Shown: piece after piece, positions 3,333-29,905 of the stretch
Position numbering within the stretch: the stretch's first letter is position 1
Layout of the letters: the number at the start of each line of letters is the position of its first letter
From: Candidatus Scalindua sp.
Lineage (GTDB): Bacteria > Planctomycetota > Brocadiia > Brocadiales > Scalinduaceae
Reading direction: 5' to 3'
Assembly (NCBI GenBank): GCA_031316235.1
Contig: JALDRA010000001.1
Location: 2,310,001 to 2,342,000, forward strand
DNA: 32,000 bases
Notes under the pieces: model-generated
What the model was told of the DNA's origin: nothing
The model's database searches: none
Seen by the model: the letters and a program-made list of their open reading frames with translations, nothing else
Position numbers and translations under genes: made by a program

Positions 3333-3444
3333 TATACTCATCTTACAATGGTTTTCGGATACTATCCGAGATAAAATTGAGCGAGTATACCTTCACCAGG
3401 ATCTGGTTTCCGGTAAAACCGAAAACCAGATCGGCTTTAGTATA
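3333..3444 (+). repeat. Full-length 112-bp modular interspersed element (modules A+B), copy 1
   Basis: TATACTCATCTTACAATGGTTTTCGGATACTATCCGAGATAAAATTGAGCGAGTATA + CCTTCACCAGGATCTGGTTTCCGGTAAAACCGAAAACCAGATCGGCTTTAGTATA. Near-identical to the copies at 8082, 19005 and 30542. Confidence 0.95.
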
Positions 3445-8081: not shown

Positions 8082-8193
8082 TATACTCATCTCATACTGG
8101 ATTTCGGATAAAATCCGAGATAAAATTGAGCGAGTATACCTTCACCAGGATCTGGTTTCCGGTAAAACCAAAAACCAGATCGGTTTTAGTATA
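8082..8193 (+). repeat. Full-length 112-bp modular interspersed element (A+B), copy 2
   Basis: Same architecture as copy 1. The B 3' arm carries ACCAAAAACC (one extra mismatch). It lies in the divergent region and ends 117 nt upstream of the marC start. Confidence 0.95.
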
Positions 8194-9098: not shown

Positions 9099-11228
9099 TC
9101 ATATGACACGGCTTGCTATTCCGATTTCTTTCAGTGCCGGCTGGTAAAACTTTAACGCGTATTCTTTCACCATCCGGCGCGCGCTGAATGCCGCTCCGGT
9201 GCTTTTTATAGACTCCTTCATGAATCTGATCCACTCATGAGGGACCCCGTCCTGATCCTGGTTGTAATAAAGAGGAACAACATCATTCTCCAGCAGCCGA
9301 TAAATTGATTCAGCATCTCCGGTATCTGATCCGCTTTCCTTAAAGGCCCAGCCGTTTTTACCGTTGTACCCCTCCAGCCACCATCCGTCAAGTATACTGA
9401 GCTGTGGGACACCATTGAGAGAAGCCTTCATTCCGCTTGTCCCTGAAGCTTCCATCGGCGGAACTGGATTATTAAGCCAGACATCAACACCGTGCACAAG
9501 ATATTGAGCAAGTTGTTCATTATAATTCTCAATAAAGGCGATATGGCCGCCCATGGCAGGGTCACAGACCTTTTGAAAGACGTCCTGAAGTATTCTCTTA
9601 CCCTCGTTATCGGCGGGATGTGCCTTTCCCGCGAATATTATCTGCACCGGCCTCCACCGGTTATTGAGCAGCCGTTTCAGCCGCTCCAGGTCTGAAAAGA
9701 TCAGGTATGCCCTCTTATAGGTTGCAAAGCGGCGTGCGAATCCGATGGTTAAGGCGAGAGGATCCAGAAGCGTGCCTCCCGAGATCACTTTCAGCGGATC
9801 AGCCCTCTCTTCCACCCACTCTTTGCGTGCAAGTTCCCTCACCGCATTTACCAGTTTTGTCTTCGTCCACCTGGAAACATGCCATAGATCCTGGTTCGGA
9901 ATGTCCTCAACAGCCTTCCACAGGTCGGGACTATCGTGATGCTGTTTCCAGTCCGGGCCGAGATACTTGTTAAAAAGGAGTTCCATCTTCGGCTCTAGCC
10001 AGGTAGGCACATGCACACCGTTGGTTATGTAATCAATGGGCACATCATCTACTTTTTTATCGGGCCACAGAGACTTCCACATTTGACGGGAAACTTCTCC
10101 ATGTTTTTTACTGACACCGTTATGATATGCCGTCAGATTCAAGGCAAGTACAGACATATTAAATCCGGCGGAAGGATTTTCCGGGTGCAGCCCCAGACGG
10201 TAGAAAGAGTCACGGCTCAATCCGAAATGGGAATAGTAACTGCTGAAATATTTGTCCATGAGAGGGAACGGGAAGACGTCAATTCCCGCGGGAACCGGGG
10301 TATGGGTTGTAAAAATTGATGTTTTCCGGGTGTTCTGGACAGCATCATCATAGCTCATGCCACTGGTCATTCTGCTTCTTACTCTCTCAAGCAGTGCAAA
10401 TGAGGTGTGTCCTTCATTGAGATGCAAAAGGTAATCATCTATTCCAACTGCCCGCAGGGCCTCACTGCCGCCGATTCCGAGAACAAGCTCCTGCAGCAGC
10501 CGGTGTTCGATGTCGCCGACGTACAGTTGTGATGTGATTGACCTGTGCCAGGGGACATTTATTTCAACATCGGTATCCATGAGATAGAGGGTGACCCGGC
10601 CGACATCCACTTTCCAGAGGGCAACATGGATCGGGGGATCAGTAAATGGAACTTTAACTACCAGCTGTTTCCCCTCTTTATCAAGGACTCTCGTAATAGG
10701 GGTTACGTCTCTGTCCAGGGTTTCATCGACACTTTCCTGCCAGCCGTCAATACGGATTCTCTGTCGGAAGTACCCTTCGGGATACATAAATCCGATTGCA
10801 ACCAGCGGAATACCGAGGTCACTGCACTCCTTGATATGGTCTCCGGCCAGAAAACCCAGCCCTCCGGCATAAAAGGGAAGGGAGTGATGCAGGCCGTACT
10901 CCGCAGAAAAATAGGCAATCGGCGGACAGGCTGCACAGGTAATTTTCTCAGTGAACCAGCAGCTGAGTATTTCCATGTAACGGTTGAATTCAGTCATGGT
11001 TTTATCATAGTGTTTCAGATACTGGGGATTATTTGCCGCTGATTCCAGAATCTCAGCAGGAATTTCCCTGAGCATCCTGACAGGATCGTGAACGCACTCT
11101 TTCCATGCCTGCCTGTCCAGCGATTTAAAAATCAGTCGCGTCGCCGGATTCCAGCTCCACCACAGATTATATGCCAACCCGGCGAGACCGTTTATTCTTT
11201 CCGGTATGTTAGGAAAATTTTTTGTCAT
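9099..11228 (-). CDS. glgP: Alpha-glucan (glycogen/maltodextrin) phosphorylase, GT35, short bacterial type
   Basis: 709 aa. N-terminal LAYNLWWSWN region, PLP-lysine motif EASGTSGMKASLNG, NEGH, TNGV. Confidence 0.9.
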   Translation of the reverse strand: MTKNFPNIPERINGLAGLAYNLWWSWNPATRLIFKSLDRQAWKECVHDPVRMLREIPAEILESAANNPQYLKHYDKTMTEFNRYMEILSCWFTEKITCAACPPIAYFSAEYGLHHSLPFYAGGLGFLAGDHIKECSDLGIPLVAIGFMYPEGYFRQRIRIDGWQESVDETLDRDVTPITRVLDKEGKQLVVKVPFTDPPIHVALWKVDVGRVTLYLMDTDVEINVPWHRSITSQLYVGDIEHRLLQELVLGIGGSEALRAVGIDDYLLHLNEGHTSFALLERVRSRMTSGMSYDDAVQNTRKTSIFTTHTPVPAGIDVFPFPLMDKYFSSYYSHFGLSRDSFYRLGLHPENPSAGFNMSVLALNLTAYHNGVSKKHGEVSRQMWKSLWPDKKVDDVPIDYITNGVHVPTWLEPKMELLFNKYLGPDWKQHHDSPDLWKAVEDIPNQDLWHVSRWTKTKLVNAVRELARKEWVEERADPLKVISGGTLLDPLALTIGFARRFATYKRAYLIFSDLERLKRLLNNRWRPVQIIFAGKAHPADNEGKRILQDVFQKVCDPAMGGHIAFIENYNEQLAQYLVHGVDVWLNNPVPPMEASGTSGMKASLNGVPQLSILDGWWLEGYNGKNGWAFKESGSDTGDAESIYRLLENDVVPLYYNQDQDGVPHEWIRFMKESIKSTGAAFSARRMVKEYALKFYQPALKEIGIASRVI

Positions 11229-11501
11229 GTTTGATCATGTTTGATATCGTAGAGAAGGATCATACATCTACCTCAGCTGTTGTCAATAGTCTGGAACTCA
11301 GGATAATCGTCAAATCATCGATGGTATCTCTGTCTTGTTCGATTTTCCATACTATCTTTCCCGTCATGGAAATCCTCTACTGCCTTCCAGGCCTTGTCTC
11401 TTAATTGCCCGGTTATTGAAACAAAAAGAAATTTTATCTTTCCAAAAGCAGATTTAACTATATAATTTTTTTTTTACTTTGTATAGTGTTTTCTTGTAAT
11501 T

Positions 11502-14222
11502 ATGCAAGAAGAGAGAAAATTCAGTGTAACAATGTCTAATCCTGAAAAAAGGCTTCAAAATCCTATAAAAAGAATATTTAATCCCTCAACAATAGCGCTC
11601 ATTGGTGCTACCGAGAGAGAGGGTTCTGTCGGGAAGACCATTCTGGAAAACTTACTGCTCAGTAAAGAGAGAAAGATATTTCCCGTAAATCCGAACAGAG
11701 ATACGGTGCTTGGAATGGCGTGCTATGCGGATGTTGCACAGGTTCCAGAGGAGATTGATCTTGCGATCATAGTAACACCTGCCCGGATAGTGCTGGAATC
11801 TGTTACACAGTGCGGTAAGGCAGGTGTAACGGGGATAATAATAATCTCTGCAGGTTTCAGAGAGACCGGAAAAGAAGGCCGGGAACTGGAAGACCAGATA
11901 AGTAAAATCGGGAAGCAATACGGAATGAGAATCATAGGACCTAACTGCATGGGAGTCATCAGGCCGAATATTGGCTTAAATGCATCATTTTTCAAGGCTA
12001 ATCCTGAACCGGGAAACATTGCCTTTATCTCTCAAAGCGGCGCGCTGGGGAGTGCTGTACTGGATTGGGCAATCAGCGCGCATATAGGGTTCAGTATGTT
12101 TGCATCCATTGGTTCAATGCTGGATGTTGCTATAAGCGACTTGATAGATTTTCTTGGAGATGACCCTGACACAAAAAGTATTATGATTTATATGGAGAGT
12201 ATCGGAAATGCAAAAAAGTTCATGAGTGCAGCAAGGGGATATGCACGTAACAAACCCATAATTGTTGTTAAACCGGGAAAGTATGATGAAAGTGCAAAGG
12301 CTGCAATGTCTCATACCGGCGCTATAGCAGGAGACGATCAGGTTTATGATGCAGCCTTCAAGAGGGTTGGTGTCGTGAGAGTAAAAAATATAGCAGATTT
12401 ATTTGATGTTGCAACGGTTCTTGATTCAAAGAATCTACCCAAAAGTCAGAGATTGGCGATTATTACCAATGCCGGTGGACCGGGAGTCATGGCTACCGAT
12501 GCATTGATTGAACTGGGAGGGGAACTTGCACATCTCTCTGATAAAAGCCTGGCAGAGCTTAATACGTGCTTACCCCCCTACTGGAGTAAAGGCAATCCCC
12601 TTGACGTTTTGGGGGATGCGGACAATGAAAGATATCTTAAAGCCATAAACATCTGTTTAAATGATCCCGGTGTAGACGGCATTTTAATAATTTACACGCC
12701 TCAGGGCGCTACAAAACCGCATGAACTGGCAAAAACCGTTGTCGAAATTTTCAAAAATGCATCGAAACCGATCTTGACTGCATGGATTGGCGGAGATGAT
12801 ATTCAGAAAGCACGAAAAAATTTGATACAAAACGGCATACCAACATATGAAACACCTGAGGATGCCGTTAAGACATATCTCTACATGTACAAGTATTTTA
12901 GAAATCTCAAGCTGTTATATGAAACACCGGTTGAATTGTCGACAGACTTGTCACCGGCAAAACATAATCTAAAAGCACTCATAAAAAGAACTATTACCGA
13001 GGGGAGAAAAGTTCTTACTGAGGAAGAATCCAAGAGGTTTTTAATCAATTACGGCATCCCGACAACCAAACCATATCTGAGCAGAGACGTTGAAGACGCC
13101 GTATGCATGGCGGGCAGAATTGGTTATCCGGTAGTACTGAAAATTACTTCTCCAGACATTACTCACAAAAGTGACATAGGAGGTGTTTTAACCGGCATAC
13201 ATTCTGATGAAGGATTAAGGGCAGGATACAACAGCCTGATTAAGAATGTCAAAAAAAATGTGCCGGAGGCGAGAATGGTGGGCGTGTCCATACAGAAGAT
13301 GATCCTGGATGTAGATTACGAGCTTATACTGGGCGTAAAAAAGGACAAGGATTTTGGTTCTGTTATCCTTTTCGGTATGGGAGGTGTCGATGTTGAAATA
13401 TTCAGGGATATCTCCATAGGACTGCCTCCATTGAATCAGACTCTGGCAAAAAGGTTAATGGAAGAGACAAAAGTATACCAGATGCTTAAAGGGTTCAGGG
13501 GGAGAACTCCTGCTGATATGAGACAATTAGAGCAGATACTGGTAAATTTCTCAGACTTGATAGTAGATTTCCCAGAGATTGCAGAAATGGACATAAACCC
13601 GCTTGCGGTATCGAACGGTAAACCATATGCCCTTGATGCCAGGATCATCCTTGACAGTGACGCCCTGAAGTATACAGTACAATTTCCCCATTTAGTAATT
13701 ACACCCTATCCGACGAGATATATCATTCCCTGGAAATTGTCAGATGGAACCGAAGTAACCTTAAGGCCGATCAGGCCTGAAGATGAACCGTTAGAACATG
13801 AAATGCTGACGACCCTGTCCAAAGAGGCATTGATAGGGAGATTCTTTCAGGCAATCAAGGATATTACACATGAGATGCTCTTTAGATTCTGCAACATAGA
13901 CTACGATAGAGAAATGGCTATTGTCGCTGAATTAAGAGAAGATAAAAAAAGAAGGATAATCGGTATTGGAAGGCTGATTATTGAGGCAGAGTTCAAGAAT
14001 GCAGAGTTTGCAGTTGTTGTTCATGATACATTTCAGGGGAAAGGGCTAGGGCATAAGCTCATAGATACATTGATAGGAATTGCACAGGAAAAGGAATTGG
14101 AGAAGATGTACGGCATCGTTCTGACAGATAATGAAAGGATGTTAACGGTTTGCAGAGAATTAGGTTTTATCATAAAACACCTGCCGGATGGGATCAGTAT
14201 GGCTGAATTGGTATTAAAGTAA
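11502..14222 (+). CDS. ADP-forming acetyl-CoA synthetase-like domains fused to a C-terminal GNAT (Pat/PatZ-type protein acetyltransferase architecture)
   Basis: 906 aa. CoA-binding IALIGATEREGSVG, ligase-CoA region with MSHTGAIAG, an ATP-grasp part, and a C-terminal GNAT with QGKGLGHKL. The start may be the internal Met at 11532. Confidence 0.8.
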   Translation: MQEERKFSVTMSNPEKRLQNPIKRIFNPSTIALIGATEREGSVGKTILENLLLSKERKIFPVNPNRDTVLGMACYADVAQVPEEIDLAIIVTPARIVLESVTQCGKAGVTGIIIISAGFRETGKEGRELEDQISKIGKQYGMRIIGPNCMGVIRPNIGLNASFFKANPEPGNIAFISQSGALGSAVLDWAISAHIGFSMFASIGSMLDVAISDLIDFLGDDPDTKSIMIYMESIGNAKKFMSAARGYARNKPIIVVKPGKYDESAKAAMSHTGAIAGDDQVYDAAFKRVGVVRVKNIADLFDVATVLDSKNLPKSQRLAIITNAGGPGVMATDALIELGGELAHLSDKSLAELNTCLPPYWSKGNPLDVLGDADNERYLKAINICLNDPGVDGILIIYTPQGATKPHELAKTVVEIFKNASKPILTAWIGGDDIQKARKNLIQNGIPTYETPEDAVKTYLYMYKYFRNLKLLYETPVELSTDLSPAKHNLKALIKRTITEGRKVLTEEESKRFLINYGIPTTKPYLSRDVEDAVCMAGRIGYPVVLKITSPDITHKSDIGGVLTGIHSDEGLRAGYNSLIKNVKKNVPEARMVGVSIQKMILDVDYELILGVKKDKDFGSVILFGMGGVDVEIFRDISIGLPPLNQTLAKRLMEETKVYQMLKGFRGRTPADMRQLEQILVNFSDLIVDFPEIAEMDINPLAVSNGKPYALDARIILDSDALKYTVQFPHLVITPYPTRYIIPWKLSDGTEVTLRPIRPEDEPLEHEMLTTLSKEALIGRFFQAIKDITHEMLFRFCNIDYDREMAIVAELREDKKRRIIGIGRLIIEAEFKNAEFAVVVHDTFQGKGLGHKLIDTLIGIAQEKELEKMYGIVLTDNERMLTVCRELGFIIKHLPDGISMAELVLK

Positions 14223-14249: not shown

Positions 14250-17222
14250 TCATCTCTCCTCAAATTGTTTAATAATCTGGCCTAATTCACCCATTTTCCT
14301 TAACGCGATGAGATCCTGGCCGGCTACTGCCCCGGCATTTTTCCCAAAACGTTTTTTTCTTTTATCCGGATCTAAAACTTCATCGAGCGCCTTGATGCCT
14401 TTCTTCAATAATTCAATTTTTCCCAGGCGTTTTCCAAACTCCAGATAAAGGTTGACTTTATTTTTATGTTGATAGACGTAGGGAAGATACCCCTGCGCCT
14501 TATCAATCATCCGGTCCAAAGCCTCAATGGCCCTTGAGAGAGTCTCTTCCGCACCCCTGGGATGCCCTAGCACAATTAATTCTCGTGCATGATAAGCATG
14601 TATTACCGCTTCAAAAAGGAAGATCCCCTGCTCCAGGTTATAATCCAGGACATTATTTTGTTCCCGTTGTATTTTTGCCCTCTGTTTTTGCTGTTTAATG
14701 ATCTGCTCTTCGATGGTTAAGCTCGTCGGGCGTACAAATTTTGTTTCTACCTCCACCAGGTGATCGTCTGCTTCCTGAAGCTGTGTTTTTGTTGGAACGA
14801 GGGCTGACAAGAATTGCAGAATGAAATCATCTTGTAAGAGAAGCGGAATTTCAAAAAGCTGAGCGATGTTGGCGATCTTTCCAGAATTCTGTTTACTCCG
14901 GTATTCAAGAATTGCCTGAATTATTTTTCTGGATAAACCATACCTGGATTCAAATTGAGATGAGAGTCCTGAGGTATCAACATTTCTCCCGTTGGCTGGA
15001 TCAGTTTTCTCCTTATTAATGAGATCAAGAAATCCCCAGTAGGCCTCCATCATACCGTTTCGTATGGAAGGAGGTGATTCTCTAAAGACCGTTACCAGTA
15101 ATAAACTCATCCAGATATCTCCATGCGATCTGTGTAATTCTTTTTCGTAGTTACTGACCAGTTTTGTCTTACGCAGCTCTGTAAATACCTCGTAGGCTTT
15201 CTTGTAACGGTACAAAAGGCGTTGTTCCTTTTCCTCGGGAAATTCTTTCCTTTCCCACATGCGAGCAATCTCATCATGATAGCTGTGGATTATCTCCCAC
15301 AGGCTGAGTCCGTTATACCTTTCCATCAAGTCGATCTCATGTCCGGTATATTTATAAGCCTCCCTCCAGTATTCGAAGGCCTTCGGAATGAGAGTGAGAG
15401 ATTTTTGTTTTCCCTCCACCCCTTTCACCCAATTGTCTTCTGCCAGCTGAATGGTCCGATCCATTTTATCTATAGCTATTCTTCTCAGGAAGCGTCGCAG
15501 GCGCAGAGAATCTTCATTTTCAGTATAAATCAATGCTTTCTTGAATATCTCTGTTGCCCTTTTAATAGCGACATCAGGTTTTCCTATACCCAGGACCTCT
15601 GATCCTCTGATATATAACTCTGCGATGGCTATATTTCTCTGAATTATTTTTGAATGACAGTCTGCAGAAAGCCTTGATGCATTCCTGATGGTTTCCCTGG
15701 CCTTCCTCCACTTTCCAAACTCTGCATAGGCGAGACCCAGGTGATAGAGGTTTTCTGCCTTTTTCTCTTCCGACCCGGATATCCGAACTTCCGACAGGTA
15801 GTGAGTGATACTTGTCTCAAATTCTAACTCCAGGTTAATGATTCCTTTCTCTTTGGGGCCGAGCCACAACACATTCACCAGGGCATTGCCTGATTTTTCA
15901 TTGATCCGTAAGCGTTGAATTCCACCTCCCCAATAGGGATTCTCCCTGATTATGCCAACGGCCATTACACTTTCATTGAGATCAGCCTTAATCATATCCT
16001 GGTGTGTATAGATTTTATTCCGACCGCTAACAGGATCTATCAAGACAAAGTTGAATCGTTTGGCATTACGTTTCTCGCGTGGTGAAAAATTATCAACATT
16101 ATCAAAATGGGTGTAGGCCACACCCTGATAGAGATACTCGGTCGAAATAGGGATACCGGCAAAATTGCCGCCATATTTTGCGACAAGCCAGGCGCTGTTA
16201 AGGGTTCCCGGCATCCCACCAGAACCAATCAGCATATCGATATCACCTAAAGCGATCTCAATGCCTTGTGACCAGTCATCATTTAAGACCCAGGTAATAT
16301 TTCCCTCGGTAAGTATTCCGGGGCCTTCTCTGAGATCTTTGCCGATTTTAAAGAAATCTTTTTTGCCCACATGAAAACCACTGGTTTTCAGTGCCTTGTA
16401 AATATCCTCATGACGTTTTCGCCAGAGAACAGCAATTTTCACGTTCCACCGGGTTTTGCCGTTTTCCTTTCCTGCAGTATCAAATCCTTCACCCAGTAAT
16501 TTTGCCATGAGATTAATATCCAGGCTTCTGCTGGTTGAATGAAGAGCCTGTTCAAAAATCTTTTTTAAATCAATCTGCTTGAATTTATCACCGACAATGA
16601 TCTTGAACATATAATCATCCGGAAGATCCTGGAAGGCATATGCCTCTCCATCCTTAACAGCCCCGAAGAGCACGGACGTAAGTGTCCTGATTTTCTCAGG
16701 ACTGACAATGCCTTGCTGGGATTCCAGGATATTTAACACAAGATCAATCTGCCTCCCTTCAAAACAGTAACCCAGTGTCTCTCCATGAATCAGGGTGGGT
16801 CGTACAACCAGGGTAATACTCTTTCGTTCGCCTTCGGTACCTTTCACTACAATGAACACATGCCGGGTATTCATCAATTCCCTCAACCACCAGACCTGCA
16901 TTCCTCGATAACGGGATAAATTAATCGGATTGCCATTTGTAACAATATATTTGCCTGCATGGGCAGATATTCTTCCCACCATAAGAACTGATCCAACGAC
17001 AAGCTCCCCCAATGTTCCGTTTAGATCCACTGATATTTCATCAGGAGCAATTTTCTCTTGTCGATTACCACTGAGCAGACGGTTTGCGTCCCTGACCTTG
17101 AGCCCAAGGATATTGAGCTCCCGCTCAGGTTCAAAAAAGGTCTCTATTGCCTCAATTAAGGGCAATATTTTTGCGTTATGTGCTGGAATGGCGGAGTTCA
17201 TCTGCTGCTTACGACTATTCAT
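14250..17222 (-). CDS. Large uncharacterised protein: divergent GlpX-like (class II FBPase fold) core plus ~500-aa alpha-helical/TPR-like C-terminal region
   Basis: 990-aa uninterrupted ORF. YMFKIIVGDKFKQIDL, KIAVLWRKRHEDIYKALKTSGFHV and DIDMLIGSGGMPGTLNSAWLVAKYGG resemble E. coli GlpX YMEKLIVGPGAKGTIDL, TVTILAKPRHDAVIAEMQQLGVRV and EVDVLYGIGGAPEGVVSAAVIRALDG (recalled from memory). The C-terminal half is helical repeat-like (YHLGLAYAEFGKWRKARE). Confidence 0.6.
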   Translation of the reverse strand: MNSRKQQMNSAIPAHNAKILPLIEAIETFFEPERELNILGLKVRDANRLLSGNRQEKIAPDEISVDLNGTLGELVVGSVLMVGRISAHAGKYIVTNGNPINLSRYRGMQVWWLRELMNTRHVFIVVKGTEGERKSITLVVRPTLIHGETLGYCFEGRQIDLVLNILESQQGIVSPEKIRTLTSVLFGAVKDGEAYAFQDLPDDYMFKIIVGDKFKQIDLKKIFEQALHSTSRSLDINLMAKLLGEGFDTAGKENGKTRWNVKIAVLWRKRHEDIYKALKTSGFHVGKKDFFKIGKDLREGPGILTEGNITWVLNDDWSQGIEIALGDIDMLIGSGGMPGTLNSAWLVAKYGGNFAGIPISTEYLYQGVAYTHFDNVDNFSPREKRNAKRFNFVLIDPVSGRNKIYTHQDMIKADLNESVMAVGIIRENPYWGGGIQRLRINEKSGNALVNVLWLGPKEKGIINLELEFETSITHYLSEVRISGSEEKKAENLYHLGLAYAEFGKWRKARETIRNASRLSADCHSKIIQRNIAIAELYIRGSEVLGIGKPDVAIKRATEIFKKALIYTENEDSLRLRRFLRRIAIDKMDRTIQLAEDNWVKGVEGKQKSLTLIPKAFEYWREAYKYTGHEIDLMERYNGLSLWEIIHSYHDEIARMWERKEFPEEKEQRLLYRYKKAYEVFTELRKTKLVSNYEKELHRSHGDIWMSLLLVTVFRESPPSIRNGMMEAYWGFLDLINKEKTDPANGRNVDTSGLSSQFESRYGLSRKIIQAILEYRSKQNSGKIANIAQLFEIPLLLQDDFILQFLSALVPTKTQLQEADDHLVEVETKFVRPTSLTIEEQIIKQQKQRAKIQREQNNVLDYNLEQGIFLFEAVIHAYHARELIVLGHPRGAEETLSRAIEALDRMIDKAQGYLPYVYQHKNKVNLYLEFGKRLGKIELLKKGIKALDEVLDPDKRKKRFGKNAGAVAGQDLIALRKMGELGQIIKQFEER

Positions 17223-17242
17223 GGAAAATTTTCTCTCATACC

Positions 17243-17406
17243 CTTCACAAATTGATTTTCGGTTTTCAGAACCAGATTTTACCTGGACGCTGCATTTTCC
17301 CCGATCACAAAGTCCCGGGTCTTTTTTGTCCAGAGAAAATCCTCAACGTAGTCTTGCCAGGCTTCTGGTTTTTAGAAAAACTGAAAACCAGATCGGTTTT
17401 AGTATA
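17243..17406 (+). repeat. Mosaic copy of the interspersed element: degenerate B-like module, C-like spacer, then an intact B module with a different stem apex
   Basis: 17243-17280 CCTTCACAAATTGATTTTCGGTTTTCAGAACCAGAT is a decayed B. 17310-17336 AAAGTCCCGGGTCTTTTTTGTCCAGAG matches about 20/27 (by hand) of the reverse complement of the 27-bp unit at 22851-22877. 17353-17406 CTTGCCAGGCTTCTGGTTTTTAGAAAAACTGAAAACCAGATCGGTTTTAGTATA is an intact B. Confidence 0.7.
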
Positions 17407-17522
17407 TATAGAGTGTGCGAACGAAAACCCGGTGTTTGACCAGCCAGGACGGATATGTACCGGAATTTGAGAATTTATCAATAAAAATCTCTTAGAGGGG
17501 TTTTACAGAAATACCAGCTCAT

Positions 17523-18530
17523 TCATTCCATATCAACTGTATATTTTCCCTGCGTTGCCAGGCCATTTAGCCTTGCTCGTTTCAGGAAGGCATCCTGACC
17601 GGCTTTAAAATTTTCCTGTTTACCCTGCCATGCCTTTAATGCAGGTTCCTGCAAAGCGCGGGCAAATGAAAAGCTGACATACCACGGCAGATTTTCTCCT
17701 ATCGTGTGTATCCTGTTAAGATGGGCAGTTGCCTCAACCGGAGTCTGCCCTCCAGACAGGAAATTTATGCTTGGCAGCTCAGCAGGTACCGTTGTCTTAA
17801 GGCATCTGATAGTCTGCTCTGCAACCTGATCCACGTCCGCACGATTCACTGCCTCTTTTCCAGAAATAACCATGCTTGGTTTCAACACACAGAGATCAAT
17901 CCTCACATGTTCTCTCTTTAAAGATTCAAAAACTTCCTTTAAGACTTTTTCCGTTGCTTCATAACACTGTTCAATCGAGTGTGTTCCATCAATCAGTACC
18001 TCCGGCTCGACAATCGGAACAAAGCCATGTTCATGGCATATTTTTGCATATATGGTAAGATCCCGGGCATTTCTTTTTATAGCCTCAGCACCTGGAGTGT
18101 TTTCTGAAATAGTGTAGACGGCTCTCCATTTTGCAAACCGTACCCCTGACTTTTTGTAACTCTTCAGCCGGTCTCCCAACCCTTCCAATCCTTTTGTGTA
18201 TTTTTCTCCACCTTCGTTCAAATCTGCCAGACCCTGATCAACTTTTATTCCAGGCACTATTCCATTTTTTTGTAAAACCTCAGGAAATAAAACACCACTA
18301 TCAGATTTCTGATGCAGAGTCTCCTCAAAAAGAATTACCCCGGAAATGTAATTTTCCATTCCCGGTGTCGTTAAAATCAAATTCCTGTATTGTCTCCTCG
18401 TTTCCTCAGTTGATTCAACGTTAATGGATGCAAGTCTTTTTGCAGCGGTTTTTTCGCTTTCATCAGCGGCCAGTATTCCTCTTCCCGTAATGACCATATC
18501 CCTTACTGTCTGTTTTAATTCTTCTTCCAT
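17523..18530 (-). CDS. fba: Fructose-bisphosphate aldolase, class I (eukaryote-like type)
   Basis: 335 aa. GILAADESEKTAAKRL, VILFEETL, GIKVDQG, FAKWRAV, IVPIVEPEVL, Schiff-base lysine context LKPSMV, FLSGGQ, SFSFARALQ. Collinear with vertebrate aldolase A as I remember it. Confidence 0.92.
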   Translation of the reverse strand: MEEELKQTVRDMVITGRGILAADESEKTAAKRLASINVESTEETRRQYRNLILTTPGMENYISGVILFEETLHQKSDSGVLFPEVLQKNGIVPGIKVDQGLADLNEGGEKYTKGLEGLGDRLKSYKKSGVRFAKWRAVYTISENTPGAEAIKRNARDLTIYAKICHEHGFVPIVEPEVLIDGTHSIEQCYEATEKVLKEVFESLKREHVRIDLCVLKPSMVISGKEAVNRADVDQVAEQTIRCLKTTVPAELPSINFLSGGQTPVEATAHLNRIHTIGENLPWYVSFSFARALQEPALKAWQGKQENFKAGQDAFLKRARLNGLATQGKYTVDME

Positions 18531-19004: not shown

Positions 19005-19116
19005 TATACTCATCTCATAATGGTTTTCGGATACAATCCGAGATAGATTTGAGCGAGTATACCTTCACCAAGATCTGGTTTCCGGTAAAACCGAAAACCA
19101 GATCGGTTTTAGTATA
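19005..19116 (+). repeat. Full-length 112-bp modular interspersed element (A+B), copy 4
   Basis: TATACTCATCTCATAATGGTTTTCGGATACAATCCGAGATAGATTTGAGCGAGTATACCTTCACCAAGATCTGGTTTCCGGTAAAACCGAAAACCAGATCGGTTTTAGTATA. It ends 128 nt upstream of the MBL gene start. Confidence 0.95.
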
Positions 19117-20791: not shown

Positions 20792-22105
20792 TTAAGCAGC
20801 TTTTCCATCATTTGTTTTAAACTCTTTCAAGAGCCGCAGAAATAATAGAGGAATAAGGCTCATGAAAGAGGAAATAATTACCATCCCGGTAAAACCATGA
20901 CCTGGTTCCTGATAAACAACTTTTCCATCGACATATTGTATGATACCGAAGAAATCAAAAACTTTTCCACCTACCCATGCCCCGGTCATTGAACCGATAT
21001 TACAGAGACTCATCATGACCGCAAATACCGTACCTTCAATCCCTTTCGGGCACGCCCGAACCGCAACTCTCATCGAACAAACAAACCCGATCATGGATAC
21101 AAAAGAGCCTATGATAAAAATACAAAGCAGTAAGGTGTAGTTATAAACTGTCCAGACATAGGTCAAATTAATTCCTGCTCCGATAAGAAGTGTTATCTTG
21201 AGTATTATTCTTATATCAAATTCCTGTATATATTCCCTGTAATAGCGTAATCCCAGTAATCCGCCAAATGAGCCAGCCGCACTTACTATTCCGCGCATAA
21301 AAGGGGAATAACCAAGTATCTTTCCCATAAAATACTGCATGGCGCTCGGGCTGAATAAGGGGGCCATATTCAGGATGAATAAAAATATGGCAGCGGCACT
21401 CAAAAATTTCACTGAGCCTTCATAAGACGATTTCTTGAAAAGTTTTCCCCAGTCTTTAGTAAAATGGGCATTTTTATCTTCTTCTTTCAGAGACCATAAA
21501 GCGACAATACAGAGAGCGAGAGGGGCAAGTGACATCAGTGCAAACGTAAATTTCTCTCCACAGAAATTTATCAGGAATCCTCCTCCTATACCGCTCAGAC
21601 AAGCTCCGAAACATCTCATTTCCCACATTATGGCCTGTATAATACCCTCTTGACCGCTATCTTTTTTGCAGATATCAACACCATGCGCGTCGCAGGCAAC
21701 ATCGGTAAAACCGAATCCAAGATTGAGGCAAAACGCGGCAAATACAAACATCCAATAGGAATTAACTATGCTTCCTATTGCAACAGAGCTTGAAAAAACG
21801 ATAAAGCTGCAGATGATAATATACGGTATCCTGCGTCTTCCAAAAATCGGAAAATGGTCGGAAATAAACCCCCAGAACGGTTTAATAAACCAGGGGAACT
21901 GCATCAATATCGTCATTGATACAAGTTCTCCCATGGTTAAATTAAATTGCCTCTGCAGGTAGATCGGGAAAGCAATACCTGTTATTCCGAATACGAGTCC
22001 CTGGGCAAAGTAAGAAGCCGAGAAAATCCGGTATCGTGCTTCAAACAGCTTTTTTGTTGAATGCCAACCTAAAAAATCTTTGATTACAACAATTGACTTG
22101 ATCAT
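20792..22105 (-). CDS. MFS transporter, folate-biopterin transporter (BT1)-like
   Basis: 437 aa with about 12 hydrophobic segments. N-terminal SYFAQGL motif typical of the BT1 family. Confidence 0.7.
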   Translation of the reverse strand: MIKSIVVIKDFLGWHSTKKLFEARYRIFSASYFAQGLVFGITGIAFPIYLQRQFNLTMGELVSMTILMQFPWFIKPFWGFISDHFPIFGRRRIPYIIICSFIVFSSSVAIGSIVNSYWMFVFAAFCLNLGFGFTDVACDAHGVDICKKDSGQEGIIQAIMWEMRCFGACLSGIGGGFLINFCGEKFTFALMSLAPLALCIVALWSLKEEDKNAHFTKDWGKLFKKSSYEGSVKFLSAAAIFLFILNMAPLFSPSAMQYFMGKILGYSPFMRGIVSAAGSFGGLLGLRYYREYIQEFDIRIILKITLLIGAGINLTYVWTVYNYTLLLCIFIIGSFVSMIGFVCSMRVAVRACPKGIEGTVFAVMMSLCNIGSMTGAWVGGKVFDFFGIIQYVDGKVVYQEPGHGFTGMVIISSFMSLIPLLFLRLLKEFKTNDGKAA

Positions 22106-22762: not shown

Positions 22763-24753
<1,991 letters not shown>

Positions 24754-24768
24754 GGAGGAGAAACGCTG

Positions 24769-25044
24769 TTGGGAGACCTGAGCAGGAAAATTGAAAAGAA
24801 AGAGGCCAGAAAAATGAAGGCACGGGCCGATAAGGACAAAGGTGTTCTGTTCGGGCTCGGTATGTTCGGTCTTGTGGGATGGTCCGTAGCGATTCCCATG
24901 CTGCTGTTTCTCGGTATCGGGATCTGGATAGACGCCAGGTGGCCTTCAAAACACTCATGGACCCTTATGATGCTTATTATTGGAATGATTACCGGGTGTT
25001 GGAACGCGTGGTACTGGGTAAAGAAACAGAGCAGGGGAGAATGA
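24769..25044 (+). CDS. atpQ: N-ATPase accessory membrane protein AtpQ (AtpZ/AtpI-like)
   Basis: 91 aa. TTG start 8 nt after GGGAGGAG. A basic N-terminus is followed by two TM helices (GLGMFGLVGWSVAIP..., WTLMMLIIGMITG). The operon position matches. Confidence 0.75.
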   Translation: MGDLSRKIEKKEARKMKARADKDKGVLFGLGMFGLVGWSVAIPMLLFLGIGIWIDARWPSKHSWTLMMLIIGMITGCWNAWYWVKKQSRGE

Positions 25045-25068
25045 GACTGTTGATGGCATGGAGAAAAG

Positions 25069-25368
25069 ATGGGATTCGTTTTTGAAATATTTTCTTTCGT
25101 GACGCCCTTTTTGGCAGGTATCTTTGCGAGTTTATTCTATCACATCGGGCTCTGGTGGACAGTAAAAGCGCTGCCATCGTCACAAAGACCTGCTCTTCTG
25201 AGTATAGGAAGCTTTTATATCAGGATGGGAGTAACACTATTTGTTTTCTATCTTGTAATGAATAACAGCTGGCAGCGTCTTGTAGTATGCCTGCTGGGGT
25301 TTCTTGTGGTAAAGTACACAATGACGCACATGCTGAAACCGGGAGAAAATGCTTCCAGGTTTAAATAA
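25069..25368 (+). CDS. atpR: N-ATPase accessory membrane protein AtpR
   Basis: 99 aa with three hydrophobic segments. It is located between atpQ and atpB, as in described N-ATPase operons. Confidence 0.7.
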   Translation: MGFVFEIFSFVTPFLAGIFASLFYHIGLWWTVKALPSSQRPALLSIGSFYIRMGVTLFVFYLVMNNSWQRLVVCLLGFLVVKYTMTHMLKPGENASRFK

Positions 25369-25406
25369 ATGATTGTTAAGATTCATTGATTATAGAGGAT
25401 TAACTA

Positions 25407-26105
25407 TTGAAAATCAGTCCTGATTTGATCATATTCTGGCAGTGGGGAGATGTTACGTTAAACGCTACGATAGTCTTTACCTGGGTAATCATGATCTTCC
25501 TGACTATCTGTTCGTGGGTAGTAACCAGAAAACTCACCACAGAAACAAAACTCTCACGCTGGCAGAATATCCTTGAAATTCTCGTTACGTGGATCCAGGG
25601 CGAGATAGAGGCTATCAGTCACCGTGAAACATACCGGTACCTGCCGTTTGTAGGAACGCTATTTATTTTTATTGCCGCTTCAAATCTATTGGCCATTATT
25701 CCGTGGTACCAGGCGCCTACCAGTTCTTTGTCCACTACCGTAGCGCTTGCCGTTTGTGTTTTTATTGCGACCCCCCTGTTCGGTATCATGGAAGGAGGGG
25801 TGAAAGAGTATTTTCGGTCATATCTCAAACCTACATTCTTCATGCTGCCATTCAATATTATCGGAGAAATTTCACGCACACTCGCGCTTGCGGTAAGGCT
25901 TTTCGGCAACATCATGAGCGGTTCCATGATAGCGGGGATCCTGCTGTCGGTTATCCCGCTCTTTTTCCCTGTTATCATGCAGGCCTTCGGTCTGCTTACG
26001 GGACTGGTACAGGCATATATTTTTGCCGTGCTGGCAATGGTATACATTGCCTCGGCAATACAGACGCACAAGAGGAAGGATACAAAGGGTGCGGACGTTG
26101 AATGA
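25407..26105 (+). CDS. atpB: N-ATPase a subunit
   Basis: 232 aa. TTG start 7 nt after AGAGGA. The conserved stator arginine context is LAVRLFGNIMSG, with a polytopic hydrophobic profile. Confidence 0.9.
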   Translation: MKISPDLIIFWQWGDVTLNATIVFTWVIMIFLTICSWVVTRKLTTETKLSRWQNILEILVTWIQGEIEAISHRETYRYLPFVGTLFIFIAASNLLAIIPWYQAPTSSLSTTVALAVCVFIATPLFGIMEGGVKEYFRSYLKPTFFMLPFNIIGEISRTLALAVRLFGNIMSGSMIAGILLSVIPLFFPVIMQAFGLLTGLVQAYIFAVLAMVYIASAIQTHKRKDTKGADVE

Positions 26106-26119
26106 GAAGATAGACCGCG

Positions 26120-26178
26120 TATGTTCATCTTATAATGGTTTTTCGGATAATATACTGAAACCAAATCGGTTTTAGTAT
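26120..26178 (+). repeat. Miniature derivative of the interspersed element inside the atp operon (A 5' half plus palindrome of two B termini)
   Basis: TATGTTCATCTTATAATGGTTTTTCGGATA is followed by ATACTGAAACC-AAATC-GGTTTTAGTAT (11-bp stem with one G.T). It lies 14 nt after the atpB stop and 37 nt before the atpE ATG. Confidence 0.85.
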
Positions 26179-26215
26179 TTAACAATTTGATATGATATAA
26201 AGGAGGGAATCGATC

Positions 26216-26494
26216 ATGGACACGCTTGGTTTAATAGGTATCGCTTCAATTATCACTGCAGGTATTACGATAGCGATCGGTTCAATCGGGCCGGCCCTGG
26301 GTGAAGGGCGTGCGGTCTCTCAGGCCCTGCAATCCATAGCGCAGCAGCCTGATGAGGCTAACACAATAACGAGGACGCTTTTTGTGGGACTGGCAATGGT
26401 TGAGTCTACGGCGATATACTGCTTTGTCGTGTCAATGATTCTGCTCTTTGCCAATCCCTTCTGGAACCATTTTATTAAAAATGTTGGAGGATGA
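26216..26494 (+). CDS. atpE: N-ATPase c subunit (proteolipid) with a complete Na+-type ligand set
   Basis: 92-aa helical hairpin with a strong SD, AAAGGAGGG. Helix 1 has GPALGEG and helix 2 has MVESTAIY, with an AQQPDE loop. Confidence 0.95.
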   Translation: MDTLGLIGIASIITAGITIAIGSIGPALGEGRAVSQALQSIAQQPDEANTITRTLFVGLAMVESTAIYCFVVSMILLFANPFWNHFIKNVGG

Positions 26495-27271
26495 TTGGTG
26501 ATTGACTGGTTTACAGTAGGTGCACAGATTTTTAATTTTCTGATTCTTGTTTATCTGCTCAAGCGTTTTCTCTACGGACCTATAATCGCGGCAATAGATA
26601 AAAGGGAAGAGAATATCTCCGCAAGAATCAGGGAAGTAGAGCAGAAAGACATTGCTGCTGAAGAAGAGATAAATCGGTACCGGAAAAAGAATGAGGATTT
26701 TGAGTTGCAGCGCGAAGAGATGCATGCCCGGATGAAGGAGGAAGCCGAGTCTCAGAGGAAACAGCTTATCGAGAATTCCCGTCAGGAGATTGAAGAAATG
26801 AAAACCCGCTGGAATGAATCTATTTTGCAGGAGAGGGATGTGTTCCTGAGAAATCTCAGGAGGCGTGTAATTGAACAGGTTTACGCAATAACAAGACAGG
26901 CCCTTGCCGATCTGGCCGCAACTGATATCGAACACCACATGGTAGACGTTTTTATAAAGAAGATTCATGAATTTACTGAGGCAAAGAGTGGAAATATTAC
27001 CCCTGTTCTCAATGACACGGTATCTGGAATCACGATTGCCACATCCTTTGAATTGACCGTGGATCAGCAAGATTTAATAGTAAAGGCAGTCAGAGAGCTT
27101 CAGACTGACAACAAAGATATCAAATTTATTGTATCGAATGACATACTCTGCGGGATTGAACTCAGGGGAAATGGTTACGTAACCGGCTGGAACCTTGAGG
27201 ATTATCTGAAGTCACTGGAGAAAGATTTTCATAAGGCTATTGAGGCTGGCACCGGGAAGGTAAACAGTTGA
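26495..27271 (+). CDS. atpF: N-ATPase b subunit with delta/OSCP-like C-terminal extension (b-delta fusion)
   Basis: 258 aa. It has an N-terminal TM helix and a long charged coiled coil. The C-terminal IKFIVSNDILCGIELRGNGYVTGWNLEDYLKSL resembles the delta C-terminus (E. coli ...[25 protein letters not shown], from memory). The true start may be the GTG at 26498, 7 nt after GGAGG. Confidence 0.85.
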   Translation: MVIDWFTVGAQIFNFLILVYLLKRFLYGPIIAAIDKREENISARIREVEQKDIAAEEEINRYRKKNEDFELQREEMHARMKEEAESQRKQLIENSRQEIEEMKTRWNESILQERDVFLRNLRRRVIEQVYAITRQALADLAATDIEHHMVDVFIKKIHEFTEAKSGNITPVLNDTVSGITIATSFELTVDQQDLIVKAVRELQTDNKDIKFIVSNDILCGIELRGNGYVTGWNLEDYLKSLEKDFHKAIEAGTGKVNS

Positions 27272-27315
27272 AAATTTTCTGTATGAAACGGAAGTAAAAG
27301 TTTACTGAAAGCAGG

Positions 27316-28926
27316 GTGTATGGCGGGATTACCGAAAAAAGGAGTACGGAATTGAGTGACAGGAATGAGTTGAATACTGTTCTGGATGAAGTCTTTACAA
27401 CTTTTGACCGTGTTATCAAAGAACATCATTATGAACCGACCGCACATGAAACCGGCACAGTCAAATCCGTGGGCAGAGGTATTGCCCTTATAGAGGGATT
27501 GCCAGGCGTGAAGTCCGAAGAGCTGATCATATTTCCCGGAAATTTATACGGAATGGTCTTTAACCTTGACCCGGAAGAGGTCGGAGTTGTCATGCTTTCA
27601 AAGAGTGAAGGATTGCAGGCAGGCAGCACAGTGACCAGGACCGGAAGGGTAATGGATGTGCCTGTGGGGGAAGCACTTCTGGGACGTGTTGTTGACCCGA
27701 CAGCCAGGCCGCTTGATAATGCCGGCATGATTCATTCTATCGAAAGAAAACCGATAGAGCGGGAAGCACCCTCAATTATGGACCGTGAACCGGTAACCGT
27801 TCCCCTTCAGACAGGCCTCAAGGTAGTGGATGCTCTCATCCCGATCGGAAGGGGACAGAGGGAGCTTATACTCGGAGACCGGCAGACTGGAAAGACTGCT
27901 GTTGCCCTGGATACAATTATAAACCAGAAAGATAAGGACGTAGTATGCGTTTACTGTGCGATCGGCCAGCGGAGTTCTTCTGTTGCAAAGCTTATTGAAG
28001 ACCTTCACCTGCACGAAGCAATGGAATATACCATCGTTGTCACGGCATCCGGTGAAGACCCGCCTGGAATGAAATTCATTGCGCCTTATGCGGCAACCTC
28101 CATGGCTGAATATTTCATGGAAAAAGGCAGAGATGTCCTGATTGTATATGACGATTTGACCAGTCATGCGATTGCATACAGAGAACTCTCTCTGCTCCTC
28201 AGACGTCCTCCCGGAAGAGAAGCCTTTCCCGGAGATATTTTTTATATACATTCCCGTCTCCTTGAGCGTGCAACACATCTGAGAAAAGAACTTGGAGGGG
28301 GCTCATTAACGGCTCTGCCCATTGTGGCTACCGAAGCGCAAAATATTGCAGCCTACATTCCCACAAATATAATCTCTATTACGGACGGGCAGATTTATCT
28401 TTCACCCGATCTTTTTCAGAAAGGTATTTTGCCTGCTGTGGACGTCGGCAAGTCGGTATCCCGTGTGGGTGGGAAGACACAGCTTCCCGTATACCGTTCT
28501 GTTGCAGGAAATTTGAGACTCTCCTATTCTCAGTTTGAAGAGCTTGAGAAATTTGCCCGTTTCAGTACACGGCTTGACGAGCAGACCCGAAAGACGCTTG
28601 AAAGGGGCCGCCGTGTGCGTGAGGTGCTCAAGCAGGATCAGTACAAACCCTTTACCGTGACAGAGCAAATCGCGGTGCTTCTGTCCGTTACAGAAGGAGT
28701 TTTTGACAGTTTGCCGGTGGAGGTAATTGGAGAAGCTGCGCAGTCTATCAGGTCATCGGTACGAGAACAGCTGCCTGATATAAGTGAAAAAATTCATACC
28801 GGCAGTAAACTGTCCGATGAAGACAAAAAGGCGATTGTTGCAGCTGCAGGAGCAGTGATTCCAGAAGAGAAAAAAATTGACAACACGTCAGCTCCTCAAC
28901 ATCCTGCCCGAAAGTCAGATCAGTGA
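27316..28926 (+). CDS. atpA: N-ATPase alpha subunit
   Basis: Walker [17 protein letters not shown], and a conserved alpha core. The in-frame TTG at 27352, 7 nt after AAGGAG, is a more plausible start than the GTG at 27316. Confidence 0.93.
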
Positions 28927-29017
28927 GTTGTAAAGCCATGATAAAGTAAAGGGTTGACCCCGGAATACGGAATAAAATTTATGGAATTTAACCGTCTCCT
29001 ACACTAAAAAAGAGAAT

Positions 29018-29905
29018 ATGCAAACCATTAAAACCATCAGGAGAAACATTAAAAGTGCGGAAGATCTTCGAGACATTGTAAAAACCATGCGGACATTGTC
29101 TGCCGTAAATATCCACCATTTTGATCAGGCTGTTGAATCTACGGGTGATTACTACCGGTCGGTTGAAATGGGATTTCAGGTGTTACTCATGGATGAAACG
29201 GTCACCGCACGGGAGCAGAAGGAAGAGAGCAAATGCGGGCTCTATGCCGTTATATTCGGCTCGGATCAGGGGCTTTGTGGAGGTTTTAATGAGCAGATTG
29301 CTGCCTATGCGCTCAAGGAGATTGGAAACGGGAAAACGGTAGAAAAGAGTACCATTGTATGCATAGGCGCGCGCGTGCTCGCGTCTGTTGAGGAGCGAAA
29401 GCAGAAAGTTGCGGAAGTCTTTCCGCTCCCGGGATCGCTTGCGGGTATAACCCCGATAGTTCAGAAGATAGTAATGTCAATTACTAATTTGCAGGCAACC
29501 GGGAAAATCAAAAGAGTCACACTCTTTTATCATAAACTGCTGTCACAGATTTCCTATGAGCCTCATTCCATGACTCTCCTTCCCATTGACCGGGAATGGA
29601 TAGAATCAATCAAACAGAAAAAATGGCCAGGCCGTACACTCCCCTCATTTACCATGGATCGAGAGGACCTTTTTTCCGCGCTTTTCCGTCAGTATATGTT
29701 TGTTTCCCTTCACCGGGCATTCGCAGAATCCATGGCATGCGAAAACGCGGCCCGTCTTCTTTCCATGCAGTCAGCCGAGAAGAATATTGAAGAGAGGCTT
29801 GAACAGCTCAACGCCATTTACCGCAGCGAACGCCAGAGTTCAATTACCAGCGAACTCCTGGATATTGTGTCAGGCTTCGAGGCATTGAGAAAAAAAGGGG
29901 AGTAG
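29018..29905 (+). CDS. atpG: N-ATPase gamma subunit
   Basis: 295 aa. N-terminal IKTIRRNIKSAEDLRDIVKTMRTLSAVN and C-terminal ITSELLDIVSG helices typical of gamma. It is the last gene of the operon. Confidence 0.9.
   Translation: MQTIKTIRRNIKSAEDLRDIVKTMRTLSAVNIHHFDQAVESTGDYYRSVEMGFQVLLMDETVTAREQKEESKCGLYAVIFGSDQGLCGGFNEQIAAYALKEIGNGKTVEKSTIVCIGARVLASVEERKQKVAEVFPLPGSLAGITPIVQKIVMSITNLQATGKIKRVTLFYHKLLSQISYEPHSMTLLPIDREWIESIKQKKWPGRTLPSFTMDREDLFSALFRQYMFVSLHRAFAESMACENAARLLSMQSAEKNIEERLEQLNAIYRSERQSSITSELLDIVSGFEALRKKGE

Follow-up and report, generated by a model that had tools for sequence, protein, structure and literature searches.

The 32,000-nucleotide stretch of Candidatus Scalindua sp. 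DNA analysed here (the window; contig JALDRA010000001.1, positions 2,310,001 to 2,342,000) encodes a 990-amino-acid (aa) protein in which aa 67-470 are predicted to adopt the GlpX fold of class II fructose-bisphosphatases (FBPases). In this domain, four of the ten residues published for the GlpX active site are replaced, the residues that would hold the substrate 6-phosphate are kept, and a long helical region follows. Because the GlpX fold lacks its catalytic residues and is fused to a helical tail, this protein is probably an adaptor and not the FBPase of its database label. The best explanation overall, with a rough probability of 0.5, is that it serves as a non-catalytic, sugar-phosphate-binding adaptor or scaffold that would respond to a metabolite.

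GlpX-like fold

Assignment of aa 67-470 to the GlpX fold is strongly supported by sequence comparison and structure prediction. The region has the conserved domain PF03320 (FBPase_glpX; 33.9 bits against a cut-off of 27, E-value: 2e-8), although the match is confined to aa 113-237 (profile positions 38-151 of 307). A BLASTP alignment with E. coli GlpX (MG1655 record) pairs aa 107-356 collinearly with GlpX 34-230 (E-value: 1e-5). A preliminary description of this locus, made from the sequence alone, had proposed a GlpX-like fold on the basis of several sequence blocks; the four blocks that it quoted are all collinear with authentic E. coli GlpX, and the proposal is upheld by the domain match above cut-off and by the structural results below. 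Relatives of the protein match PF03320 strongly (P0026, E-value: 7e-53; P0013, E-value: 2e-41), which provides transitive homology, and phmmer with E. coli GlpX itself finds relatives with E-values down to 3e-33. Direct searches of PDB sequences, using either the single protein or a nine-sequence profile, returned no GlpX, only weak arginase, designed-TPR and MprF noise. A comparison with the single E. coli GlpX sequence by hhalign reached a marginal 44% probability and put the DGD motif in the wrong place owing to a 30-aa insertion; the family alignment corrected this placement.

AlphaFold, given an alignment of 17 diverse family members, modelled aa 62-567 with a predicted local distance difference test (pLDDT) score of 87 and a predicted template modelling (pTM) score of 0.87. 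With nine near-identical full-length sequences, the pLDDT was 44. A good model was obtained only after distant relatives had been added, and for aa 62-567, so that aa 568-990 are without a usable model. The two-domain alpha/beta sugar-phosphatase fold is present in the model of aa 67-470. When the model was compared with the PDB using Foldseek, the top 24 matches were all GlpX enzymes and the next match had an E-value of 0.01. The best match was E. coli GlpX with bound fructose 1,6-bisphosphate (FBP) (3d1r; E-value: 1.8e-17, TM score of 0.83 normalised to the target).

Active-site residues

The E. coli GlpX site comprises D33, E57, D85, E88, T90, Y119, K164, R166, D188 and E213; D85 and E213 coordinate one metal, D33 and E57 coordinate a second, an interaction between T90 and D33 is needed for catalysis, and the substrate 6-phosphate is held by a Tyr/Arg/Arg triad (PMC5892879). 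The high-affinity metal site of class II FBPases (M1) is defined by the motif DPxEGT plus E57 (PMC10289334). In PMC5485559, the substitution T84A (at the equivalent of T90) is reported to inactivate the M. tuberculosis enzyme.

Residues were mapped using a MAFFT L-INS-i family alignment that included E. coli GlpX, and the mapping was repeated with all full-length homologs. Six of the ten positions are retained in the 990-aa protein (E57 as E130, E88 as E167, Y119 as Y204, K164 as R268, R166 as R270 and D188 as D316). The other four are lost (D33 to R106, D85 to N164, T90 to Q169 and E213 to G339), and these are both metal-1 ligands (D85 and E213) and the catalytic Thr90/Asp33 pair. The resulting pattern R-E-N-E-Q/E-Y-R-R-D-G is found in 15/15 Scalindua-lineage sequences, with one N-to-T exception at N164 and one E-to-V exception at E167. 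G339 occurs in all 15, and R106, Y204, R268 and R270 are invariant. Position 169 is Q, or E in the Scalindua clade of ~69% identity, and since it varies within the clade there is no catalytic constraint at this position. The PDxYMxK and RxRH motifs of GlpX are also retained. In the wider family, GlpX E88, K122, K164 and D188 have invariant equivalents, and those of E57 and Y119 are near-invariant. Judging from this mapping, the canonical GlpX catalytic machinery is dismantled in the 990-aa protein and the 6-phosphate clamp is intact. The giant relatives P0026 and P0033 retain the ten residues completely or almost completely and may be true enzymes.

These results revise the motif assignments of the preliminary description. 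Its pairing of GGMPGT with GGAPEG, which makes Gly339 the counterpart of E213, is borne out by both BLASTP and the family alignment. Its pairing of VKGTEG with DP(I)EGT was mistaken: VKGTEGE aligns with the V-I-G-E57-G-E loop of GlpX, and E130, the equivalent of E57, is retained. The true counterpart of DPIEGT is NILESQ (N164-I-L-E167-S-Q169); this motif is indeed altered, having lost its Asp and Thr, but it keeps its Glu. The broader statement that Asp and Glu ligands are lost is right for D33, D85 and E213, to which T90 can be added among the replaced residues, and wrong for E57, E88 and D188. The insertion of about 55 aa placed after the first motif resolves into a net insertion of ~20 aa at that point and a separate one of ~30 aa (FFKIGKDLREGPGILTEGNITW) before the DDW motif, which corresponds to the DGD of GlpX.

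Conservation and helical region

Eight full-length homologs of the 990-aa protein share 68-97% identity with it. The closest named homolog is from assembly GCA_002443295, and a scan of species genomes assigns the gene to Candidatus Scalindua and related Brocadiaceae. Intact open reading frames (ORFs) of ~980-990 aa are present in at least 15 genomes or contigs. The ratio of nonsynonymous to synonymous substitution rates (dN/dS), calculated by the Nei-Gojobori method against four homologous loci for four regions of the gene, is 0.14-0.19 for the whole gene and 0.07-0.27 across all regions. Values for the GlpX-like domain are 0.08-0.18, below those of the other three regions in all but one of the four comparisons, and 56% of its columns are invariant among nine sequences. 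The whole protein is under purifying selection. The N-terminal extension, in which 34% of columns are invariant (A1 alignment), is also found in the relatives P0009, P0011 and P0012.

The GlpX-like part is followed by ~520 residues of predicted helix. Helices up to aa 567 are predicted with pLDDT scores of 85-95, and aa ~485-567 match the TPR domain of LGN over ~105 residues (Foldseek probability 1.0, E-value about 0.2). Pfam matches to the 34-residue TPR motif fall below their cut-offs (best E-value: 0.027, aa 491-519). The prediction for aa 568-990 is all-helical with low confidence. Of the ~500 aa of TPR-like helices in the preliminary description, roughly aa 485-567 find support as TPR-like; the rest is predicted to be helical with low confidence. 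Invariant columns make up 57% of the second helical region (aa 726-990), where long invariant runs occur (KFVRPTSLTIE, LDYNLEQGIFLFEA and KRFGKNAGAV), and this region is also found as a separable module in P0014, P0031, P0016, P0020, P0010 and P0013. A likeness to MprF at aa 872-946 (NCBIfam E-value: 0.003; PDB 4v36 E-value: 0.3) was rejected as chance, the region being predicted as all-helical and the score far below the cut-off. The 990-aa protein has no hydrophobic segment with a transmembrane-like score and no signal-peptide-like stretch, and it is predicted to be soluble and cytoplasmic.

Wider family and giant fusion proteins

The family is rare: when 1.84 billion representatives were searched exhaustively with a profile, no more than 28 clusters proved to be related. 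PF03320 is matched by every cluster scanned except P0011, which has no Pfam match. Conservation as a unit covers the GlpX-like domain and the first helical region (aa 471-725), with profile matches extending to about position 710. Stand-alone forms of about 880-990 aa are the Scalindua 990-aa protein, an 888-aa paralog in Scalindua/Brocadiales, and proteins of Desulfosarcina and of an unclassified metagenome-assembled genome (MAG). The other members are internal cassettes of 1,100-4,500-aa proteins, and most relatives sit inside giant multi-enzyme proteins with aldolase, TIM, GAPDH, PGK or phosphoenolpyruvate (PEP)-utilising domains. Fusion partners include PEP-utilizers_C (five proteins), PGK (P0026), a HAD domain with a xylose-isomerase-like barrel, HATPase_c and a methyltransferase, the last in the closest non-Scalindua relative.

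In P0033 (3,897 aa; L007:10001-21694, JGI metagenome 3300045502, bacterial contig), a GAPDH C-terminal domain is followed by a GlpX-like domain, then by two class I aldolase domains and finally by TIM. The P0033 aldolase domains are 32-33% identical to the aldolase encoded in the window, and its GlpX-like domain has all of the catalytic residues except R166. P0033 amounts to a covalent "mega-enzyme" of lower glycolysis/gluconeogenesis, and this fusion gives independent support to a functional association of the GlpX-like domain with aldolase. The P0033 gene adjoins futalosine-pathway and UbiD/UbiX genes.

The locus L021 (2-14770), from a Candidatus Omnitrophota MAG (JAUSCZ010000038.1), is spanned by one ORF without interruption, which exceeds 4,923 aa and continues past the locus on either side. 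Within this ORF, the 990-aa unit is present in full (37% identity over aa 2-976), along with EamA transporter, methyltransferase, GH77 4-alpha-glucanotransferase, metallo-beta-lactamase, receiver and HATPase_c domains. FBPase-, aldolase-, TIM- and PPDK-like domains and TPRs have been noted in giant Omnitrophota proteins termed "Archaeovorins", which are proposed to act in the processing of prey cell walls (West-Roberts et al., bioRxiv 10.1101/2023.11.21.568195). Given the full-length unit within the Omnitrophota ORF and the domains listed in that preprint, the Scalindua protein can be regarded as a free-standing relative of such a cassette. Very large ORFs of 1,654, 1,649 and at least 6,419 aa, none of which has a Pfam match, flank the PEP-utiliser/GlpX-like protein P0012 (2,768 aa) in two other loci (L014:2837-24307, from GCA_003140895.1, and L015, from an ENA contig).

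The 888-aa paralog (L008:8001-10664, cluster of P0013, from Candidatus Scalindua sp./Brocadiales) is more widespread than the 990-aa protein and is annotated as a class II FBPase. It lacks D33, D85 and T90, having R, S and D instead, so neither of the GlpX-like proteins of Scalindua has a canonical active site.

Gene neighbourhood

The gene lies 300 nucleotides downstream of, and co-oriented with, a eukaryote-type class I fructose-bisphosphate aldolase gene, as the preliminary description had stated from the sequence (Table 1). The ORFs confirm this arrangement, and the aldolase has the conserved domain PF00274 (E-value: 1e-130) and the NCBIfam match NF033379 (E-value: 5e-139). Its best PDB match is Arabidopsis FBA6 (6rng; E-value: 5e-100), and the Schiff-base motif LKPSMV is intact. 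The true start of the 990-aa gene may be the second ATG, at 17201 (M8), because the closest homolog begins there.

Table 1. Features of the 990-aa gene and its surroundings in the window
Feature	Position	Strand	Remarks
990-aa gene, complete (GlpX-like domain and helical region)	14250-17222	(-)	ORF list, homologs, dN/dS
N-terminal extension, aa 1-66	17025-17222	(-)	No match to any known family; least conserved region
GlpX-fold (class II FBPase-like) domain, aa 67-470	15813-17024	(-)	Pfam, BLASTP, AlphaFold, Foldseek
First helical region, aa 471-725	15048-15812	(-)	First ~100 residues TPR-like; accompanies the GlpX-like domain in most relatives
Second helical region, aa 726-990, and stop codon	14250-15047	(-)	Long invariant runs; separable module
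Spacer between aldolase gene and 990-aa gene, 300 nucleotides	17223-17522	(-)	Holds one copy (17364-17406) of a dispersed 43-nucleotide palindromic repeat
Class I (eukaryote-type) fructose-bisphosphate aldolase, 335 aa	17523-18530	(-)	Co-oriented with and upstream of the 990-aa gene
MFS/BT1-family transporter	20792-22105	(-)	PF03092, E-value: 2e-43
Downstream syntenic block	9099-14222	mixed	Pat-like gene and glycogen phosphorylase gene (Pfam)
Glycogen phosphorylase (GlgP)	9099-11228	(-)	Pfam
Pat-like ADP-forming acyl-CoA synthetase-GNAT (ACS-GNAT), 906 aa	11502-14222	(+)	Convergent on the 990-aa gene; 27 nucleotides between stop codons

Synteny was examined by tblastn of the window neighbour proteins against eleven homologous loci. 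Each of the five members with at least 80% identity (the window, L005, L004, L016 and L020) has the aldolase gene upstream in the same orientation. None of the six loci of the ~69% clade has it there, and neither does the Omnitrophota locus. Because it is present only at 80% identity or more, the aldolase linkage, taken as synteny, is lineage-specific and not operonic. The linkage as first proposed, for which absence from other genomes had been named as refutation, therefore survives in part: it holds in the five close relatives and has a parallel in the P0033 fusion, but it does not extend to the ~69% clade or to Omnitrophota. Among the close relatives, the spacing between the two genes ranges from ~170 nucleotides to ~2 kb; a gene for a 422-aa P-loop ATPase stands between them in L016 and an opposite-strand ORF in L020.

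The GlgP gene is a neighbour of the 990-aa gene in 5/5 close relatives and the ACS-GNAT gene is one in 4/5. In part of the ~69% clade (L001 and L002/L017; 85-86% identity), the gene directly upstream, in the same orientation, encodes the MFS/BT1 transporter; in the window, beta-CASP metallo-beta-lactamase and aldolase genes stand between it and the 990-aa gene. Near the paralog and the Desulfosarcina and PEP-utiliser relatives, no recurrent partner gene was found. In GCA_002443295 (L001:13192-15762), genes for RimK-like ATP-grasp, AstE/AspA-like and RimB-like proteins lie directly downstream of the 990-aa homolog.

A scan of the minus strand of the spacer for terminators and promoters gave nothing convincing, with no candidate bearing on co-transcription above the shuffled expectation. 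The ~43-nucleotide element, which has an internal palindrome (TCTGGTTT…AAAACCAGATCGGTTTTAGTATA), is found upstream of both the aldolase gene and the 990-aa gene and was considered as a common operator. This was rejected, as four copies lie in unrelated intergenic regions of the window (~3402-3444, ~8151-8193, 17364-17406 and 19074-19116, all on the (+) strand), against none expected by chance in 32 kb. The element is therefore a dispersed repeat, and it looks like a repetitive extragenic palindromic (REP)- or miniature inverted-repeat transposable element (MITE)-like element of this genome.

Elsewhere in the window, an ATP synthase cluster (22985-29905, (+) strand) begins with the beta and epsilon subunits, and the homologous locus L005:1-2939 has AtpR- and ATPase_gene1-type small genes; we take the gene order at both loci to be typical of N-type (Na+-translocating) ATPase operons. 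A gene at 53-1933 ((+) strand) encodes a 626-aa fusion of an S-adenosylmethionine (SAM)-dependent methyltransferase and a D-Ala-D-Ala-ligase-type ATP-grasp domain, and adjoins an AstE/AspA-like deacylase gene (1941-2927, (-) strand). PADLOC defence-system models gave no match.

Proposed function and alternatives

The function suggested for the 990-aa protein can be divided into steps. The GlpX-like domain would have lost FBP hydrolysis, which is probable given the replaced residues. Its pocket has about an even chance of still binding a phosphosugar, such as FBP, sedoheptulose 1,7-bisphosphate (SBP), fructose 6-phosphate (F6P) or sedoheptulose 7-phosphate (S7P), and the invariant Arg106 that replaces a metal-binding Asp may touch the 1-phosphate directly. 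More tentatively, the protein would be a metabolite-responsive adaptor or scaffold by way of its helical region: occupancy of the pocket would be read out through the helices, which would recruit or organise partner proteins of central carbohydrate metabolism. The 990-aa protein would then be the free-standing version of a cassette embedded elsewhere beside aldolase, TIM, GAPDH, PGK, PEP-utilising and glucanotransferase domains. A link to carbohydrate metabolism is supported by these fusion partners (aldolase, TIM and GAPDH in P0033, PGK in P0026, PEP-utilizers_C, and GH77 in the Omnitrophota ORF) and by the aldolase and GlgP neighbours in 5/5 close relatives.

Several points weigh against the adaptor interpretation. 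The function is read from residue patterns and associations, and the residue mapping rests on an alignment of 16-22% identity, in which three methods agree on the positions of D85, T90 and E213. One metal site might survive, because Asn is able to bind metal and E57, E88 and D188 are still present. The AlphaFold alignment held GlpX-like relatives, and the model is therefore not independent of sequence homology. The aldolase synteny is limited to relatives of at least 80% identity and is interrupted by unrelated ORFs in two genomes, and the adjacency could be simple inherited gene order. The neighbourhoods of the paralog and other stand-alone relatives that were examined contain no glycolytic genes. 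Finally, fusion says less about functional coupling in the giant Omnitrophota proteins than it does in ordinary fusions, since the giant proteins string together a great number of unrelated domains.

The main rival, which is unlikely but not negligible, is that the 990-aa protein is still a phosphatase with a remodelled site, in which E130, E167, D316 and perhaps N164 would act with one metal and another nucleophile or water on FBP, SBP or another sugar phosphate, and the helices would serve oligomerisation or regulation. The six retained active-site residues, among them the phosphate-binding triad and three acidic side chains, are consistent with this, as are the argument that class II FBPases need only one metal site (PMC10289334), the finding that the GlpX-like domain is more constrained than the rest of the protein in three of four dN/dS comparisons, and the annotation of the protein as FBPase class II in databases. 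That the module can be an enzyme follows from P0026 and P0033, which have lost few or none of the catalytic residues; in addition, literature searches did not establish any other Scalindua FBPase. The lost residues argue the other way. The Asp of the M1 motif DPxEGT is Asn/Thr here and its Thr is Gln/Glu, variable within the clade; T-to-A substitution at the T90 equivalent is reported to abolish the activity of the M. tuberculosis enzyme (PMC5485559); E213 is Gly in 15/15 sequences; and D33, required to activate T90 (PMC5892879), is an invariant Arg. It is distinctly unlikely that the protein is purely structural, with the GlpX fold (whose enzymes assemble as dimers and tetramers) as an oligomerisation platform that senses no small molecule, left over from the cassette of a giant surface- or membrane-associated protein and possibly acquired horizontally. 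The 37%-identical full-length unit in the giant Omnitrophota ORF, the methyltransferase fusion of the closest non-Scalindua relative, the prey cell-wall role proposed for the giant proteins and the long invariant runs in the helical regions, which suggest conserved protein-protein interfaces, would fit this reading. Family-wide invariance of pocket residues (the equivalents of E88, K122, K164, D188, Y119 and E57), and not just of residues at the surface, is hard to explain without a ligand, however, and there is no signal peptide or transmembrane segment.

That the GlpX resemblance is due to chance, or that the gene is a decaying pseudogene, is effectively refuted. The PDB sequence searches that missed GlpX and the 44% hhalign probability would agree with such an artefact, but PF03320 is matched above its cut-off, the structural match (E-value: 2e-17) is to GlpX only, transitive homology runs through P0013 and P0026, and the intact ORFs in at least 15 genomes or contigs have a dN/dS of around 0.15. 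A broader form of the adaptor interpretation is more speculative, and we regard it as improbable. The cassette would be an unrecognised regulatory or scaffolding module, in which a sugar-bisphosphate sensor derived from a phosphatase fold carries a helical arm that assembles glycolytic/gluconeogenic enzymes (aldolase, TIM, GAPDH, PGK, PEP-utilising enzymes and glycogen enzymes) into a metabolon, non-covalently in Scalindua and covalently in the giant proteins of Omnitrophota and other bacteria.

With its catalytic residues lost, its substrate clamp kept and strong purifying selection acting on it, the 990-aa protein is a candidate bacterial FBP/SBP sensor. If neither this protein nor the 888-aa paralog is catalytic, reconstructions of marine anammox metabolism that use them for the FBP-to-F6P step of gluconeogenesis would be wrong, and the real enzyme would lie elsewhere. 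The 990-aa protein would also offer a small, soluble and expressible stand-in for the cassette of giant Omnitrophota-type proteins, which cannot be studied directly.

Comparison with known systems

PDB sequence and structure searches and the literature revealed no solved or characterised protein with this architecture, in agreement with the preliminary description; FBPase-like domains beside TPRs have been noted in the preprint on giant Omnitrophota proteins. Literature searches also found no described "GlpX pseudoenzyme" and did not reveal the enzyme for the FBPase step in Scalindua. The GlpX fold and family, the presence of an FBPase-like domain in giant proteins and the database label "fructose-bisphosphatase class II" were already known. 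The free-standing architecture, the catalytic loss with the clamp kept and the conserved helical partner region are apparently undescribed.

E. coli SuhB, a member of the FBPase/IMPase sugar-phosphatase superfamily, is a partner of the transcription antitermination complex, a role of protein-protein interaction and not of catalysis. SuhB retains its catalytic residues and activity, does not belong to the GlpX family and has no helical-repeat fusion.

The GlpX enzymes of E. coli (3d1r), M. tuberculosis (6ayy) and F. tularensis (7txg) and the cyanobacterial FBP/SBPase (3rpl) share with the 990-aa protein a two-lobed fold that is collinear over the whole enzyme. Compared with GlpX, the 990-aa protein keeps the 6-phosphate triad, E57, E88 and D188, lacks D33, D85, T90 and E213, and adds two internal insertions and an N-terminal extension of ~65 aa. 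GlpX is a single domain of about 320-345 aa, characterised by Mn2+/Mg2+-dependent, Li+-sensitive FBP (or SBP) 1-phosphatase activity, whereas the 990-aa protein is three times longer owing to its helical C-terminal region of ~520 aa.

The "Archaeovorin" preprint lists the same kinds of partner domains as are carried by other relatives, and along its whole length the 990-aa protein is homologous (37% identity) to a cassette inside the Omnitrophota ORF. "Archaeovorins" are very long and have transmembrane, peptidase and glycosyl-transferase/-hydrolase domains, whereas the Scalindua protein has 990 aa and is without transmembrane, peptidase or secretion-related parts; the helical fusion and the loss of catalytic residues are not described in the preprint. 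The 888-aa paralog has the same architecture, a GlpX-like domain followed by TPR-like helices, belongs to the same lineage and likewise lacks D33, D85 and T90. It differs in keeping E213, in lacking the ~30-aa insertion and in its stronger Pfam GlpX match (E-value: 2e-41), and it is ~27% identical to the 990-aa protein and encoded in a different genomic neighbourhood.

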